IMG/VR virus record: IMGVR_UViG_2740892269_000004
Strand: one strand, 5' to 3'
Origin: a virus
Lineage: Duplodnaviria; Heunggongvirae; Uroviricota; Caudoviricetes
DNA: 4,588 nucleotides
The notes under the pieces were generated by a model. That model had not been told where the DNA came from. It saw only the letters and a program-made list of their open reading frames with translations, and searched no databases. Positions 1 through 4,588 of this stretch are shown piece by piece; within the stretch, counting starts at the first letter, position 1, and each line of letters begins with the position of its first letter. A program made the position numbers and the translations under genes.

Positions 1-75
1 GAACAGGAGGGACAGCTGATAGAAACAGAAGCCACTGGAGCACCTCAAAAACACCATCATACACTAAATCAGTAA
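1..75 (+). CDS. Possible 3' end of a plus-strand gene convergent with the tail operon; product unknown
   Basis: Plus frame 1 is open from the window edge to TAA at 73..75 (EQEGQLIETEATGAPQKHHHTLNQ*), with many G-initial codons (GAA, GAG, GGA, GCC, GCA). Only 24 codons are visible and the frame is not in the supplied ORF track. A competing minus-strand reading (ATG at 60, MMVFLRCSSGFCFYQLSLLF) has no Shine-Dalgarno motif and looks less protein-like. Confidence 0.2.
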   Translation, partial: EQEGQLIETEATGAPQKHHHTLNQ

Positions 76-267
76 GTTGGCAGCATCACCGTTTTAACGT
101 TACTAATAAATCGTGAAACAATCTCCTCATTTGTTAGTATTTTCGCCTGAGCACAGCAAGAGGTTAATATTGCAACCGTCATTAAAAATGGCTTTATCAC
201 AAAACAAACTCCATTGTTAGCATGTTACGCGATAATTTTGCCTCATCTTTCACCACAAAAAAAGAAC

Positions 268-2226
268 TCACCTTTTAAATGGAGAATACCCAACATCATG
301 GGTGATTTTCATAAAGGGATCGCCTGTTTTCGGCAAATCGATAACGCGCATTCCAGGCGGCGCGTTGTCAAACGTCACCTTAAGTTCGCTGCGGGTTGCC
401 GGTGAAGATGCAAGGCTTAACAGCTGATTCCTTTCCAGTGATACATTCGGGGTGTAGCGTTTATCGGGAGATAAATACCCATCACCACGTGGCATCTGCC
501 ATCCGGTCATGTCATAGACAAAATCATGGAACTGTTTGCCCCACTCGTCGAACTTATCATTCAGACCAAATCCACTGTTCAGTGCATCAGCCACAAAATT
601 TTTAACAAGCCAGGGATGTGCTTTTTCAAACTCCTGCGCCATCATGCCCAGTTCAAGCAATCCACCAATCAGACTGATCTTTCCGAGGCCCTTTAATTTC
701 AGCCCTGTTTTTCCTGCCGCCGTTGTCCATTGATTCTGGGCGACTGTTGCCGCACGAATACTTGCCACCGCCTTCACACCAATATACAGGGCAGAAACCG
801 TTGCTATTGTTTTTACTGCCTGTTCCCATCCCCCCATTGCTCTGACAACCTGATCAACCTCCTGCCAGACTTTTTTCACAACCGGACCGACCGTTTCCCA
901 GTTATCAATTATGAGATATGCACCACCGACGAGAAGCGCAATTAATCCCTTTGCCGGCGTCATATTCATCACGCTACCCATGATTTTTGTTATGCGTGTC
1001 AATGTGCCAATCGCCACGCCCATCGTCAGTAATGCCGCACCAGTTTTCGCGATGGTTTTTACGACCTCAGGATTTTCTCTGACAAACGTGCGCACTTCTT
1101 CCAGAAAAGGCTTCATCTCTTTTATGCCNNNNNNNNNNNNNNNNNNNNNNNNNNNNNNNNNNNNNNNNNNNNNNNNNNNNNNNNNNNNNNNNNNNNNNNN
1201 NNNNNNNNNNNNNNNNNNNNNNNNNNNNNNNNNNNNNNNNNNNNNNNNNNNNNNNNNNNNNNNNNNNNNNNNNNNNNNNNNNNNNNNNNNNNNNNNNNNN
1301 NNNNNNNNNNNNNNNNNNNNNNNNNNNNNNNNNNNNNNNNNNNNNNNNNNNNNNNNNNNNNNNNNNNNNNNNNNNNNNGCAGCCTGTTTTTCTTTCGGCA
1401 CTTTTGCCAGAGAATCCAGTACGTGCAGCATGGCCCCGCGGGCGTCTTTCTGCATATCCGCCGCCAGTTTTTTCGGGCTAATGCGCAACGAGCGGAGCAC
1501 TTTTTTCTGCGATTTGGTGGCAGAATCCCTCGCTGTCAGCGACAACATAAAATTCTTTATCCCCGTCGCAGCAATTTCTGACTCCACCCCCATTCCGGCA
1601 ATGGTTGCCCCCATTGCGGCAATCTCTCCGGAGGCCACACCCGCAACACTGCCTAAAGGGCCAATACGGGTCACAACATCAGAAATCTTTTTCGCACTTG
1701 CAGGACCGGTATTACCAAGATAGTTAATCTTATCCGCAAGCCCTGCCACCTCTCCCTGTGTCAGTTTAAAGGCAGTGCGCCACTGCGCCATCATCTGACC
1801 GGATTCTTCTGCCGTGGTGTCAAAGGCCACGCCCATCTTCACGGCATCGTCAGTAAACTGCATCAGCTCGTCACGGGCGATACCAGCCTGACCACCCGCC
1901 GCCACAATTTCGGCGATACCTTCCGCCGACATGGGCAGTTCTGTTGACAGGTCGCGCACCTGCTCCGTCATTGCCTTAAACGCTTCCGGCGTATCCAGAC
2001 CATCCACCACTTTCCGGACATCCGCCATTTTTGATTCAAGGGCAATGGCAGATTTGACCGGGAGCGCCAGCGCCCCCAGTACTGCGGTTCCGGCACCCGC
2101 TGCGCCCAGTAACAGGCTGGCAAACTCCTTTTTAAAACCTTTCAGCTGGCGCTGCATTCCCTTCAGCGGTGCCGATACCTTATCCACGGCAGTGATGATC
2201 GCCTTCAGCTGAAAACTGTCAGCCAT
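268..2226 (-). CDS. Phage tail tape measure protein (652 aa; 250 nt of the gene is masked)
   Basis: Largest ORF in the window, lying directly downstream of the sheath-tube-chaperone string on the same strand. The N-terminal third is Ala/Gly-rich with repeated short hydrophobic segments (e.g. AAGAGTAVLGALALP, IAEIVAAGGQAGIA, GVASGEIAAMGATIAGMGVESEIAATG), which matches my recollection of the conserved tape-measure core. The C-terminal part has further hydrophobic stretches (LLTMGVAIGTLTRI, LIALLVGGAYLII). Start ATG at 2224..2226 is preceded by GAGGAG at a 7-nt spacing. The frame is continuous across the N block 1129..1378. Confidence 0.85.
   Translation of the reverse strand: MADSFQLKAIITAVDKVSAPLKGMQRQLKGFKKEFASLLLGAAGAGTAVLGALALPVKSAIALESKMADVRKVVDGLDTPEAFKAMTEQVRDLSTELPMSAEGIAEIVAAGGQAGIARDELMQFTDDAVKMGVAFDTTAEESGQMMAQWRTAFKLTQGEVAGLADKINYLGNTGPASAKKISDVVTRIGPLGSVAGVASGEIAAMGATIAGMGVESEIAATGIKNFMLSLTARDSATKSQKKVLRSLRISPKKLAADMQKDARGAMLHVLDSLAKVPKEKQAXXXXXXXXXXXXXXXXXXXXXXXXXXXXXXXXXXXXXXXXXXXXXXXXXXXXXXXXXXXXXXXXXXXXXXXXXXXXXXXXXXXXGIKEMKPFLEEVRTFVRENPEVVKTIAKTGAALLTMGVAIGTLTRITKIMGSVMNMTPAKGLIALLVGGAYLIIDNWETVGPVVKKVWQEVDQVVRAMGGWEQAVKTIATVSALYIGVKAVASIRAATVAQNQWTTAAGKTGLKLKGLGKISLIGGLLELGMMAQEFEKAHPWLVKNFVADALNSGFGLNDKFDEWGKQFHDFVYDMTGWQMPRGDGYLSPDKRYTPNVSLERNQLLSLASSPATRSELKVTFDNAPPGMRVIDLPKTGDPFMKITHDVGYSPFKR
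1129..1378. other. Masked block of 250 N inside the tape measure gene
   Basis: Run of N seen directly. The flanking tape measure sequence is in the same frame on both sides (84 X codons in the ORF track), which suggests the mask preserves the original length. Confidence 0.99.
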
Positions 2227-2615
2227 GCTTCATCTCCTCGTTAATGCGGACGGCCTCGGCTTCCAGTTCTGTAAACTGCGAAACAGCCCCCCGTCGCAGC
2301 TCCAGTGGATTCAGTTTCCAGAACCAGGCAACATTGTAGAGTCGTTTCCGGANNNNNNNNNNNNNNNNNNNNNNNNNNNNNNNNNNNNNNNNNNNNNNNN
2401 NNNNNNNNNNNNNNNNNNNNNNNNNNNNNNNNNNNNNNNNNNNNNNNNNNNNNNNNNNNNNNNNNNNNNNNNNNNNNNNNNNNNNNNNNNNNNNNNNNNN
2501 NNNNNNNNNNNNNNNNNNNNNNNNNNNNNNNNNNNNNNNNNNNNNNNNNNNNNNNNNNNNNNNNNNNNNNNNNNNNNNNNNNNNNNNNNNNNNNNNNNNN
2601 NNCGTTCATTGCCAT
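2219..2615 (-). CDS. Tail assembly chaperone region between tube and tape measure; reading frame ambiguous (possible frameshift, or two small genes)
   Basis: ATG at 2613..2615 overlaps the tube stop as TAATG and is preceded by GGAGGG at 2624..2629 (8-nt spacer); the product begins MAMN. This is the position where contractile and long-tailed phages conserve a chaperone gene. After the N block, the frame continuous with MAMN reads PETTLQCCLVLETESTGAATGGCFAVYRTGSRGRPH and stops at TAA 2241..2243. A different frame reads RKRLYNVAWFWKLNPLELRRGAVSQFTELEAEAVRINEEMKHG and stops at TGA 2219..2221, overlapping the tape measure start; its last about 22 codons look more coding-like. About 130 codons in total fit a single chaperone of roughly 130 aa. 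Confidence 0.5.
2234..2239 (-). promoter_or_regulatory. Shine-Dalgarno motif (GAGGAG) for the tape measure gene
   Basis: Minus-strand GAGGAG lies 7 nt upstream of the ATG at 2224..2226. Confidence 0.6.
2353..2602. other. Masked block of 250 N inside the chaperone gene region
   Basis: Run of N seen directly. It covers about 83 of the roughly 130 codons between the tube stop and the tape measure start. Confidence 0.99.
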
Positions 2616-2971
2616 TACTGATACCCTCCCTCTTCGCCGTGGAATTCAAGATCTGCCGTGCCTTCTTCGGCATTATGATTAGCCTCTCCGTGCAGCCATG
2701 CCGCCGAAAGCACATACACCATGCCGTTTGCCAGCTCAGCGGTAATCGTCATCTGGTCTGAGGTGGTAATTTTGTCGACCGGAAAGTTTTTGGGCACTTT
2801 AAACGTGCCCTTAACGTAAGGTGACCGCCAGGTCTCCTTGTAATCCACATCCCCTGCCATGCCGACGATGTCATCCCGGACATTGGTGTTCATCGGCACT
2901 TCAATGCCACCTGTCAGCGATAACTGCTGACCATCCACTTTAAAAAAACAGGTTCCGGCGATCTTTGCCAT
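2615..2971 (-). CDS. Phage tail tube protein (118 aa)
   Basis: 118-aa ORF immediately downstream of, and coupled to, the sheath gene (TAATG overlap at 2969..2973), with GAGGAG at 2980..2985 upstream of its ATG. The size and the position between sheath and chaperone/tape measure are typical of contractile-tail tube proteins. The protein begins MAKIAGTCFFKVDGQQLSLTGG. Confidence 0.75.
   Translation of the reverse strand: MAKIAGTCFFKVDGQQLSLTGGIEVPMNTNVRDDIVGMAGDVDYKETWRSPYVKGTFKVPKNFPVDKITTSDQMTITAELANGMVYVLSAAWLHGEANHNAEEGTADLEFHGEEGGYQ
2624..2629 (-). promoter_or_regulatory. Shine-Dalgarno motif (GGAGGG) for the chaperone gene, embedded in the tube gene 3' end
   Basis: Minus-strand GAGGGAGGG lies 8 nt upstream of the ATG at 2613..2615, which overlaps the tube stop codon. 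Confidence 0.6.
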
Positions 2972-4467
2972 TATGCTGACTCCTCTGAATACTGAAGACG
3001 GAACTGGTTAACCACCGCAAAGACACGTAACTGATTAACATAATCCGGCGGGAACAGCGTATTCAGTCGGTTCGGGTTATCTGCATCACGCTCAACTATC
3101 AGATACTGTTTAAACAGATCGTAATTTTCCACAATACCGGCACGCTCCATCTGACGATATGTCGCCAGAAGTTCCCCTTTGATAACGGCAGGAGTGACAA
3201 TCGCCTGCCCCGGACCAAAACGGGTACCATCATTTGCCAGCTTGTGACGTCCGTACTTGCTTGTGATGACCGATTTCAGTTTGCGAAGAACATATGCACT
3301 GGTATGCAGAGTTTCACTGTCCAGATAGCTGTTGTCTGCCACGCCATACGCATTCTTTTTGTAGGTGGTTACGGAACGCTGGATCTGCAACGTGCCGCCT
3401 TCCACATAAGCCGTCGCCACGCCGTGAGATAAAAGGGTCTGCTGCTCTGTCATGATGAATCGCTTACCTTTCGGTGCCGGAAGCATCCCCACCAGCTCCC
3501 CCGTCTGTGTCGGACGGGCAGGATCATTCCGGATAAATACCGCTTCACGGGCAAGGCGACTGGCAACCAGTTCATCGACAGGCGACTGGGTTTCTTTTTC
3601 GTAACCGGCAAGCGTGATATGTTGCTGATTATGCATATCTCCGGCACCAACCAGCTCTGACAGCGTTCCCAGTTTTGCGGTATAGCCATGCCCGTATAAC
3701 TGGCGCGCATAACTCCAGCGACCGCTGCTGTCATTCATTTCGGTCATCATCATATTGATGGAGGCGGCATCGTTGAACGGCAGACCGATAAAGTCGAATG
3801 CCTCATCGCCCATAGCAGCAACAGCGGCGGTAAGATCAGGCGCTCCGCTACCGGCAGCACCGACTTCCGTCACCACCCGAAGCCCTGCTGGCAGAATCTC
3901 ACCACCACCAGAACCATAATAATTCAGACAGACCGGTAACTCATTACCATACAGCCCCTTATGACGGGCAGTCAGCGTCACCACACCTGCATCAGATGAC
4001 GCCGTAAACGGCAGGGTGATAACCCCGTTTACCGCTTCCTTAATCGCGGTGGCAACCGCAGTGGCATCATCGCCATTCACCACAGGCACCTGTACACGGG
4101 AGCGCCCGACATACAGACTCAGGGTGCCGCTTTCCTCTGCTTCTCCGGCAACCGTCACCCTGACCGTCGCCGCCGCCCCTCTGGCTTCCGGTACTGCAAT
4201 AACATACAGTTCACCGAAAGGATCTGTCTGACGGTAGACTTCCACCATACGCGCCAGCTGGCTCCCCGCCCCACAAATCTGGCGGGCATAATCTGCCGAT
4301 GGCATCAGCACCAGGCTGTTAACCTCAATGGCTGCATCGTTGCTGGCATGCCCGATCAGTAATGCAGGCGCGCTGGTCACCGCTGTATTTGCCGCAGAAT
4401 TGTTCATCTCGGCGTAGAACAACGGCACCAGCGTATTCGACGGAACAGTATTAAAACTTATCGTCAT
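2971..4467 (-). CDS. Phage contractile tail sheath protein (498 aa)
   Basis: 498-aa ORF directly upstream of and overlapping the tube gene. The order sheath, tube, chaperone, tape measure is the conserved core of contractile tails, and the size is in the range I recall for Mu-type sheath proteins (about 500 aa). A weak AAGGA motif lies 10 to 12 nt upstream of the ATG at 4465..4467. Confidence 0.8.
   Translation of the reverse strand: MTISFNTVPSNTLVPLFYAEMNNSAANTAVTSAPALLIGHASNDAAIEVNSLVLMPSADYARQICGAGSQLARMVEVYRQTDPFGELYVIAVPEARGAAATVRVTVAGEAEESGTLSLYVGRSRVQVPVVNGDDATAVATAIKEAVNGVITLPFTASSDAGVVTLTARHKGLYGNELPVCLNYYGSGGGEILPAGLRVVTEVGAAGSGAPDLTAAVAAMGDEAFDFIGLPFNDAASINMMMTEMNDSSGRWSYARQLYGHGYTAKLGTLSELVGAGDMHNQQHITLAGYEKETQSPVDELVASRLAREAVFIRNDPARPTQTGELVGMLPAPKGKRFIMTEQQTLLSHGVATAYVEGGTLQIQRSVTTYKKNAYGVADNSYLDSETLHTSAYVLRKLKSVITSKYGRHKLANDGTRFGPGQAIVTPAVIKGELLATYRQMERAGIVENYDLFKQYLIVERDADNPNRLNTLFPPDYVNQLRVFAVVNQFRLQYSEESA
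2980..2985 (-). promoter_or_regulatory. Shine-Dalgarno motif (GAGGAG) for the tube gene, embedded in the sheath gene 3' end
   Basis: Minus-strand GAGGAG lies 8 nt upstream of the tube ATG, inside the last sheath codons (..SEESA*). Confidence 0.6.
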
Positions 4468-4479
4468 GATTTTTTAGCC

Positions 4480-4588
4480 TTATCCTTGAGGTGTACTGGC
4501 AATAGCGGACACTACCATTTGTTCTTTTTTTAAGCAGCCATCTGATGATATTTTTCCCTGAAGGCTGCCGGGGAGATATTCCCCAGAC
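4480..4588 (-). CDS. 3' end of the gene upstream of the sheath (partial; product unknown)
   Basis: A minus-strand frame is open from the window edge to TAA at 4480..4482 (..SGEYLPGSLQGKISSDGCLKKEQMVVSAIASTPQG*), ending about 12 nt before the sheath ATG. It has 12 G-initial codons out of 35, against 5 of 40 in the alternative open frame. Only 35 codons are visible, so no function can be assigned. Confidence 0.4.
   Translation of the reverse strand, partial: SGEYLPGSLQGKISSDGCLKKEQMVVSAIASTPQG

Follow-up and report, generated by a model that had tools for sequence, protein, structure and literature searches.

The gene found between those of the tail tube and the tape measure in the stretch of viral DNA analyzed here (4,588 nucleotides of the IMG/VR record IMGVR_UViG_2740892269_000004, Caudoviricetes; hereafter called the window) most likely encodes a tail assembly chaperone of the P2 E or lambda G type, with two proteins predicted from a single start codon; on the basis of sequence comparisons, we place the probability of this reading at about 0.85. 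Most ribosomes would follow the 0 frame down to the TGA at 2311..2313 and produce a protein of 111 amino acids bearing FFTQSETGSTSGNDSTMLPGSGN; a minority would move back one base on U_UUU_UUU (Phe89-Phe90) and read 52 more codons in the -1 frame down to the TGA at 2219..2221, yielding a protein of 142 amino acids with the junction ...MQILRFF-YPVGDGKHLRKRLYNVAWFWKLNPLELRRGAVSQF...KHG. We infer the ribosomal nature of this slippage, its efficiency and the functions of the two proteins. With lambda gpG/gpGT and P2 gpE/gpE+E' as models, the N-terminal part common to both forms would coat the tape measure protein; following the same two systems, the C-terminal part encoded in the -1 frame would recruit the tube protein, and both chaperone forms would be absent from the finished tail. 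The elements considered, all on the minus strand, are the following.

2615..2971, minus strand: tail tube protein gene, 118 aa, directly upstream of the chaperone gene (PF10618)
2311..2615, minus strand: putative tail assembly chaperone gene, 0-frame product of 111 aa (L005/L012; PF10109; phrog_166; WP_001251341.1)
2377..2383 (nominal; under the N mask), minus strand: slippery heptamer T_TTT_TTT (L005 3620..3626; L012)
2219..2383 (visible part 2219..2352), minus strand: predicted E'-like -1 extension of 52 codons past the shift (third-position bias; phrog_32181)
2287..2292, minus strand: G6 run, CGG GGG GCT in the -1 frame (Arg-Gly-Ala); not the shift site
268..2226, minus strand: tail tape measure protein gene, ATG 2224..2226, real protein of 649 aa (PF10145)

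The tail genes and their annotation

Sheath, tube, chaperone and tape measure genes follow one another on the minus strand, within a tail module of Mu-like type (DUF2635, Mu-type sheath and tube, DNA circularization protein). The chaperone gene starts where the earlier reading of the sequence alone (hereafter the sequence-only reading) had placed it, the ATG of MAMN being visible at 2615..2613 and overlapping the stop of the tube gene by one base. Its 0-frame protein, MAMNVTEIVLKK...MQILRFFTQSETGSTSGNDSTMLPGSGN (MAMN...LPGSGN), runs from the ATG at 2613..2615 to the TGA at 2311..2313, and the real coding sequence measures 336 nt once a mask of Ns within it is counted as 281 bases. This protein matches PF10109 (Phage_TAC_7) with 29.8 bits against a gathering cut-off of 25 (E 6e-7) and phrog_166 ('tail protein') at 5e-28, and corresponds to WP_001251341.1, named 'phage tail assembly protein' in the annotation of NZ_CP065613. 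In NCBIfam, neither of the two products, short and long, nor the extension alone had a match, and the PDB sequence search returned nothing at E values up to 10; an AlphaFold2 model of a natural fused relative (P0006, alignment of 18 sequences) had a mean pLDDT of 43 and a pTM of 0.27, too poor for a fold search.

Only the short product is annotated in the RefSeq/PGAP records of E. coli and in the GenBank/RefSeq records of phages phiP27, SfIV, ST64B, YeP2, AH07, EPP-1 and SfV, all of which leave ~84-140 nt ahead of the tape measure gene as an unexplained gap. The chaperone of the window is an ordinary, unannotated case of P2-type -1 frameshift, and the addition of a joined CDS would better annotate a common group of enterobacterial prophages with Mu-like tails. 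A search of the full-text literature on phiP27, SfIV or ST64B and frameshifting, which did not cover the tables of Xu et al. (2004), found no description of the T-run site. The tail genes of the window sit in a prophage fragment of 4.4 kb flanked by two insertion sequences (IS); since the locus is such a remnant, its function in this genome is doubtful, and the frameshift signal, though intact, has probably ceased to serve tail building here.

The N mask and the G6 run

The sequence-only reading had proposed a frame change of +1/-2 at the G6 run, assuming that the block of 250 Ns at 2353..2602 preserved the length of the DNA. The masked bases of the window were here read from two complete genomes, L005 (CP045524.1) and L012 (CP140619.1), which are identical to it at every unmasked position (0 mismatches over three segments of 1986 + 974 + 1128 = 4088 bases). 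In both genomes the real length behind this mask is 281 bases, and that behind the second mask, at 1129..1378, is 241 bases. As 281 equals 2 modulo 3 and 250 equals 1 modulo 3, the mask at 2353..2602 is not frame-preserving; consequently, the frame previously considered to be continuous with MAMN is in truth the non-coding +1 frame, and the apparent +1/-2 oddity arose from taking the mask as length-preserving. If exactly 250 bases are assumed, the MAMN frame would stop at 2241..2243; of the three minus-strand frames, the 0 frame is in fact the third (..SGNDSTMLPGSGN, stop at 2311..2313). The change of frame itself is real. The frame previously noted as more 'protein-like' (..AVSQFTELEAEAVRINEEMKHG, stop at 2219..2221) is the true -1 frame and does code for protein. 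The site, direction and oddity of the frame change as initially described are artefacts of the N mask, and the main value of the present analysis lies in this correction, namely that a fixed 250-N mask mistaken for a length-preserving one had simulated a non-textbook shift.

The G6 run is present at 2287..2292, as reported, and lies beyond the 0-frame stop, at a distance of 18 nt. Among the closely related loci that could be scored, GGGTGG is found in 9 of 13 and GGGGGG in the other 4, alleles of the same length in which the change from T to G replaces Val with Gly in the -1 frame; the G run is absent from more distant loci. The run is a lineage-specific T-to-G substitution and not an indel, so that neither the homopolymer sequencing error nor the phase-variable indel once envisaged at this position holds, and orthologues show no frame break there, an outcome that the sequence-only reading had itself named as refuting. 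The supposed switch of coding signal in G-initial codons is weak, with none at the run: excluding the run itself, such codons amount to 7/19 before and 8/22 after it in the frame chosen by the sequence-only reading, and to 3/19 before and 10/22 after it in the coding -1 frame.

A non-canonical +1/-2 shift at the G6 run, or a homopolymer error or phase-variable indel there, would have some precedent in phage Mu, which has a related tail module, shifts by -2 (PMC5009743) and keeps its +1/-2 frame open to the tape measure start downstream of CGG GGG CGA; the arithmetic would also demand such a shift if the mask were length-preserving. Against this explanation stand the real length of the mask, the 0 frame that ended before the run, the equal length of the alternative allele, the failure to match PF23746 (Gp41_Mu) and the +1 frame, which is unconserved and spans only 10 codons in locus L015. 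We give it practically no weight, since the unmasked sequence of L005 and L012 already refutes it.

The slippery heptamer and its conservation

We infer the slippery site of the window, which is masked in the window itself, from L005 and L012. Measured from the mask edge with the lower coordinates, T_TTT_TTT lies nominally at 2377..2383 (equivalent to 3620..3626 of L005), and the masked bases of the window are predicted to carry CGTTTTTTTACC at 24 nt from that edge. The 0-frame context is CGT TTT TTT ACC (codons R88, F89 and F90), and this is the only in-phase X_XXY_YYZ heptamer with the -1 frame open, the true shift being -1 at T_TTT_TTT and not +1/-2. Another candidate site, C_GGA_AAC, lies 24 nt downstream of the T run and was rejected on two grounds: it does not follow the X_XXY_YYZ pattern, and the 0 frame has already ended before that position in Leclercia and in the distant clade. 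The same earlier stops rule out a shifty stop at GGA AAC TGA. The S. flexneri lineage carries a real +1 G insertion at C_GGA_AAC, which hard-wires the fusion and constitutes a natural 'long-form-only' mutant.

A T run of identical phase, with a -1 ORF behind it that extends to the tape measure start, is found in 19/19 genome loci with 38-99% protein identity, coming from Shigella/E. coli, phiP27, Mixta, Pantoea, Buttiauxella, Mangrovibacter, Leclercia, Lonsdalea and Erwinia. The run takes the form T7A or T6C, the distant clade having six T, and the third base of the codon before it is always T even though the encoded amino acid differs (R/N/G/S). The extension ranges from 51 to 57 codons. The 0-frame stop lies 24 nt past the T run in Leclercia and 10 nt past it in the three most distant loci, and these early stops confine the shift site to the T run. 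The same arrangement is present in six related phages that we checked directly, SfIV, ST64B, YeP2, AH07, EPP-1 and SfV. The evidence supports a programmed frameshift of the P2 E/E+E' or lambda G/GT kind, which the sequence-only reading had listed among its options.

In the 31 extension codons past the 0-frame stop, the minimum numbers of substitutions at positions 1, 2 and 3 of the -1 frame are 24, 16 and 56, respectively (chi-square 28, df 2, p ~1e-6, for alignment columns that are phylogenetically non-independent). This distribution shows purifying selection, as read from the alignment, acting on the -1 frame. The -1-frame motif YN.A.FW(K/R)(I/L)NPLEL is retained down to 38% identity, and the conserved stretch of this frame begins at the T run itself, a long way before any start codon. 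The extension reads YPVGDGKHLRKRLYNVAWFWKLNPLELRRGAVSQFTELEAEAVRINEEMKHG and ends with the TGA at 2219..2221, so that it overlaps the tape measure gene by 8 nt (ATGGCTGA). Its ORF contains no ATG, GTG or TTG except for one located 5 codons before the end, and the GTG found in the -1 ORF of other strains reads GGG in the genome of the window.

These features bear on the proposal that no recoding occurs, the -1 ORF being either a separate small gene with its own start or a relic accompanying a decaying chaperone pseudogene. The -1 ORF is indeed at times annotated by gene callers as a small protein (phrog_32181, phrog_11318), the GTG of locus L001 gives an ORF of 23 aa, and both the IS-flanked position of the fragment and the insertion in S. 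flexneri could be taken as signs of decay. Yet the lack of any usable start codon in the window argues against two small genes, as does the conservation of the -1 frame from the T run onward; moreover, the frame break is common to isolated phages and to 19 loci of several genera, unlike random decay, and it is kept in every relative examined, which also speaks against the inactivating indel previously listed. We thus consider the absence of recoding very improbable.

The extension alone matches phrog_32181 at 1.4e-5, and tblastn splits the fused product into two pieces in 19/30 matching phage records. The extension gives no match to PF06528 (P2 GpE/E') at E values up to 1, and its profile alignment with P2 by hhalign, although collinear, is weak (E 0.006, probability 6%); BLASTP with the predicted long product as query and P2 E+E' as subject produced nothing significant. 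Lacking any PF06528 match and showing only this weak alignment, the extension is an analogue or a very distant homologue of E' and not a member of PF06528.

A conserved stimulatory RNA structure was sought 3' of the T run and none was detected, with RNAalifold predicting 0 pairs on 11 loci and the single-sequence fold having a z-score of -0.6. This result fits transcriptional slippage too, in which RNA polymerase would add an extra U on T7 and the resulting U8 mRNA would encode the same protein of 142 aa (R-F-F-Y-P-V...), identical to that of the ribosomal route and indistinguishable from it by sequence analysis. The site does consist of 7 identical bases (6 in the distant clade), and the run is error-prone for polymerases or sequencers, as the mixed frames of the database proteins P0006, P0013 and P0041 at this point show. 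Efficient transcriptional slippage in bacteria, however, is known from runs longer than 7 or 6 T. The invariable X_XXY_YYZ phase of the run and the conserved wobble T that precedes it also favor ribosomal slippage, as does the homologous TTTTTTG of P2, which is described as translational (PMC3091744), and the transcriptional route therefore seems unlikely. Should it be true, the PF10109 family would have three recoding routes: ribosomal -1 in P2, -2 in Mu and +1 U in the clade of phiP27, SfIV, ST64B and SfV.

Comparison with P2, lambda and Mu

The closest parallel is with P2, for which the shift has been established experimentally at TTTTTTG in the FETUD tail operon, giving products of 91 and 142 aa (PMC3091744). 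The P2 site, GGT TTT TTG, has its T run in the same phase as that found here, and the in-phase heptamer (NNT TTT TTN) is common to both systems. Hence, the earlier opinion that this is 'not a textbook case' does not stand: T_TTT_TTT occupies the phase of P2 T_TTT_TTG, with products of 111/142 versus 91/142 aa, the predicted long product having the very length of its P2 counterpart. The P2 chaperone gene likewise belongs to a contractile tail and is flanked by the tube and tape measure genes, its -1 ORF also has no start codon and ends 8 nt inside the tape measure gene, and the N-terminal domain of P2 E+E' also matches PF10109 (47.5 bits with the same tool). A downstream stimulatory hairpin is absent from P2 (PMC3091744), just as none was detected here. 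The two systems differ in the last base of the heptamer, which is G in P2 but T here and C in the distant clade, and in the 0-frame tail after the site, which has 21 codons here versus 6 in P2 and accounts for the short product of 111 instead of 91 aa. P2 E+E' matches PF06528 at 76 bits, whereas the extension here does not match it, and the likeness to P2 in sequence is visible at the profile level only; the tail module of P2 differs too from the Mu-like module found here.

Lambda gpG/gpGT, the product of another -1 frameshift, follows the same logic: a gene pair immediately preceding that of the tape measure yields, in a fixed ratio, two chaperones with a common N-terminus, of which the N-terminal part contacts the tape measure protein and the extension contacts the tube protein (PMC5009743). 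Nevertheless, lambda has a non-contractile tail, a different heptamer (G_GGA_AAG), chaperones of another protein family and a much longer extension. The likeness is limited to this logic, and we claim no sequence relationship.

Phage Mu has the homologous tail module (sheath L, tube M, gp38 of the DUF2635 family, DNA circularization protein N), with the gp41 chaperone at the equivalent position. Mu gp41 is made with a -2 frameshift (PMC5009743); it matches PF10109 marginally (24.7 bits) and PF23746 with 119.5 bits, a profile that the chaperone here does not match. The Mu extension follows CGG GGG CGA in the +1/-2 frame, whereas that described here follows T7 in the -1 frame. A P2-type -1 site can thus operate within a Mu-like tail module, in place of the -2 shift of Mu itself.

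Masked bases and the true reading frames

Four phage tail genes lie on the minus strand of the window, which also has two blocks of N and the ends of two insertion sequences, arranged as follows.

Features of the window
About 4490..4588: end of an IS3-family element, with its transposase gene ending at about 4530 on the minus strand
4467..2971, minus strand: tail sheath gene, 498 aa
2971..2615, minus strand: tail tube gene, 118 aa
From 2615, minus strand: small chaperone gene, starting ATG-GCA-ATG-AAC (MAMN)
2353..2602: 250-base N block inside the small chaperone gene
2226..268, minus strand: tape measure gene
1129..1378: 250-base N block inside the tape measure gene
1..90: end of an IS1 element (the minus strand reads GGTGATGCTGCCAACTTACTGATTTAG...)

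By megablast the segment is matched in 53 E. coli records, with identity up to 99.8%, and by phage phiP27 at 96.9%. PGAP labels in the E. coli relatives are "phage tail tube protein", "phage tail assembly protein" and "phage tail tape measure protein", and the next gene downstream in their records is that of a Mu N-type DNA circularization protein, a neighbour that identifies a Mu-like contractile tail module. Homology to intact relatives ends upstream near 4490, before the sheath gene, where the IS3-family element replaces their DUF2635 (Mu gp38-like) gene, and downstream near 87-90, past the tape measure gene, where IS1 starts (its InsA/InsB gene begins at the equivalent of position 35 in the identical locus L012). 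The window thus comprises 4.4 kb of prophage with an insertion sequence on either side: the sheath, tube, chaperone and tape measure genes, plus 38 codons from the start of a further gene, which is cut by IS1 and encodes a 160-aa protein in relatives; the N-terminus of this truncated product, MIKPFLMTVAILTSCC, looks like a lipoprotein signal.

Relatives span 1132 or 1126 bases where the query has 1101 (megablast). Contigs encoding exactly the tube protein of the window were compared with it, and two genomes, L005 (CP045524.1) and L012 (CP140619.1), showed no mismatch over the three unmasked segments (1986 + 974 + 1128 bases); they carry 281 bases at the mask 2353..2602 and 241 at 1129..1378. 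Both blocks are thus fixed-length masks, not length-preserving as the sequence-only reading had assumed for the first, and arithmetic of frame or length across either is consequently unsafe: the tape measure protein has 649 aa, the apparent 652 aa having come from counting across the mask. Modulo 3, 281 exceeds 250 by 1, so that the frame seemingly continuous with MAMN (stop at 2241..2243) is in fact +1. The third frame proves to be the true 0 frame, of 111 codons, with C-terminus ...STSGNDSTMLPGSGN* and TGA at 2311..2313, and the frame previously judged protein-like, with its stop at 2219..2221, is the true -1 frame. In L005 this frame is open from 3599 to a TGA at 3782..3784 (window 2219..2221), and it shares 8 nt with the tape measure gene at the ATG of the latter (ATGGCTGA).

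The T run and the -1 frame

Sites in the chaperone gene
L005 3620..3626, nominal window 2377..2383 (masked): T_TTT_TTT heptamer in CGT TTT TTT ACC, codons 88-90
L005 3383..3392 (masked): T_TTA_AAA and A_AAA_AAA heptamers in GTT TTA AAA AAA CCG, codons 9-12
L010 about 3652, equivalent to window ~2349: +1 G insertion of a Shigella flexneri lineage (proteins P0001-P0005)

In L005, T_TTT_TTT is the only in-phase X_XXY_YYZ heptamer in the zone where both frames are open, and a -1 slip on it would yield a 142-aa product, ...MQILRFF-YPVGDGKHLRKRLYNVAWFWKLNPLELRRGAVSQFTELEAEAVRINEEMKHG. Scanning the -1 ORF for ATG, GTG and TTG returned only an ATG five codons before the end, so that it cannot be an independent gene. 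RNA polymerase adding an extra U at the run would give a protein identical to that of a ribosomal slip. No conserved RNA structure was found 3' of the slippery site, and for P2, likewise, none is reported after the shift site.

Close to its 5' end the gene has two more in-phase slippery heptamers; a -1 slip there would end within a few codons (..KKTGDSA*), and they are probably incidental to a conserved L-K-K-P sequence. A change of frame, into -1 or +1, is seen close to or at the T run in many database proteins of the family (P0006, P0009, P0013, P0016, P0027, P0041); they come mostly from read-archive assemblies, an indication that the length of the slippery homopolymer is recorded wrongly or truly varies.

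A genome scan with an alignment of homologues as query, taking one genome per species, gave 18 loci (38-99% protein identity) from Shigella, E. coli, Mixta, Pantoea, Buttiauxella, Mangrovibacter, Leclercia, Lonsdalea, Erwinia and further Enterobacterales, or 19 with L005. The place of the run is occupied by T7A in 16 loci and by T6C in the three most distant, in identical phase throughout: the first T is always the third base of the preceding codon, and this wobble T is kept in 19/19 despite a varying amino acid (Arg, Asn, Gly, Ser). Every locus has a -1 ORF, 51-57 codons long, that reaches the tape measure start. Since the 0 frame stops 24 nt past the run in Leclercia and 10 nt past it in the three most distant loci (FFLQA*), the T run alone is possible as a common shift site.

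Over the 31 extension codons beyond the 0-frame stop, minimum substitutions at positions 1/2/3 of the -1 frame number 24/16/56 among 12 sequences (chi-square 28, p about 1e-6 by our own arithmetic, for sequences that share ancestry), a third-position excess that is the mark of a translated frame; the -1 motif YN.A.FW(K/R)(I/L)NPLEL is kept across the whole set. The predicted 142-aa product matched 30 of 50,697 phage records by tblastn, 19 of them in two pieces, including phiP27, SfIV, ST64B, 118970_sal3, Yersinia YeP1-3, Pantoea AH07, Edwardsiella EPP-1 and Paraburkholderia IPK. The phase of the T run is identical in all six phages inspected directly (SfIV, ST64B, YeP2, AH07, EPP-1, SfV), and their -1 ORF ends 8 nt inside the tape measure gene, or 11 nt in YeP2. 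A joined, frameshifted chaperone CDS is absent from every annotated record inspected (phiP27, SfIV, ST64B, YeP2, AH07, EPP-1, SfV, E. coli RefSeq), which give the short product only and leave about 84-140 nt without annotation ahead of the tape measure gene.

In a Shigella flexneri lineage a G is inserted 24 nt downstream of the T7 run (CCGGAAAC -> CCGGGAAAC), fusing the 0 and -1 frames in DNA, with a predicted constitutive 142-aa protein (..TSGKRLYNVAWFW..) and no short form; one protein of this lineage is present on 661 contigs. It is a naturally occurring mutant, restricted to the long form, within a prophage in decay. In the IS-bracketed fragment of the window the frameshift signal is intact and presumably idle.

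The G6 run at 2287..2292, where the sequence-only reading had placed a coding switch, is situated 18 nt beyond the 0-frame stop and is rejected as a shift site. It is not an indel either: its length is constant across 13 scorable close loci, with GGGTGG in nine and GGGGGG in four, L005 and L012 included, a T-to-G substitution changing Val to Gly in the -1 frame. The proposed switch in G-initial codons dissolves once the run is excluded, the frame taken as continuous with MAMN having 7/19 before and 8/22 after, and the truly coding -1 frame 3/19 and 10/22. A frame change was nevertheless rightly perceived, as was the coding nature of the protein-like frame, and the general idea of a chaperone-type frameshift was correct; its proposed site, +1/-2 direction and non-textbook character were mask artefacts.

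Comparison with P2, lambda and Mu

Observed in the sequence are two overlapping frames, a heptamer conserved with its phase, selection on the -1 frame and no start codon for it. By analogy with lambda G/GT and P2 E/E+E' (PMC5009743, PMC3091744), tandem -1 slippage of two tRNA-Phe on U_UUU_UUU would produce a long form in minor amount; the N-terminal domain shared by the two forms would bind the tape measure protein, the extension would recruit the tube protein, and both forms would depart from the finished tail.

For the 0-frame protein the Pfam match is PF10109, "Phage tail assembly chaperone proteins, E, or 41 or 14", with 29.8 bits against a cut-off of 25; it also matches phrog_166, "tail protein" (5e-28). 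By itself the extension matches two PHROG families (1.4e-5 and 3e-3) whose members are small proteins without annotation, so that elsewhere it is at times called as a gene. In P2, according to PMC3091744, which cites Christie 2002 and Xu 2004, the products of a -1 shift at TTTTTTG are E (91 aa) and E+E' (142 aa), and the P2 sequence record annotates this shift. The P2 heptamer, GGT TTT TTG, has the same phase as the present T run, and E+E' likewise ends 8 nt into the following gene, T. P2 E+E' matches PF10109 plus PF06528; the present extension has no PF06528 match. A profile alignment of the fused products with P2 E+E' is collinear end to end, placing GFF|Y on GFL|F, and weak (E 0.006, probability 6%).

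For Mu a -2 shift has been reported (PMC5009743), and in its sequence (L031 3900..4140) it is the +1/-2 frame, downstream of CGG GGG CGA, that stays open as far as the tape measure start. Mu gp41 matches PF23746, unlike the present chaperone. The tail module is shared, but the extension frame differs, following T7 in -1 here, and the recoding route has thus changed within related tail modules. Judged from its sequence, the gene is best read as a chaperone of a Mu-like tail module recoded in the P2 manner, and the feature as an ordinary, unannotated putative case of a P2-type tail assembly chaperone with a -1 frameshift.
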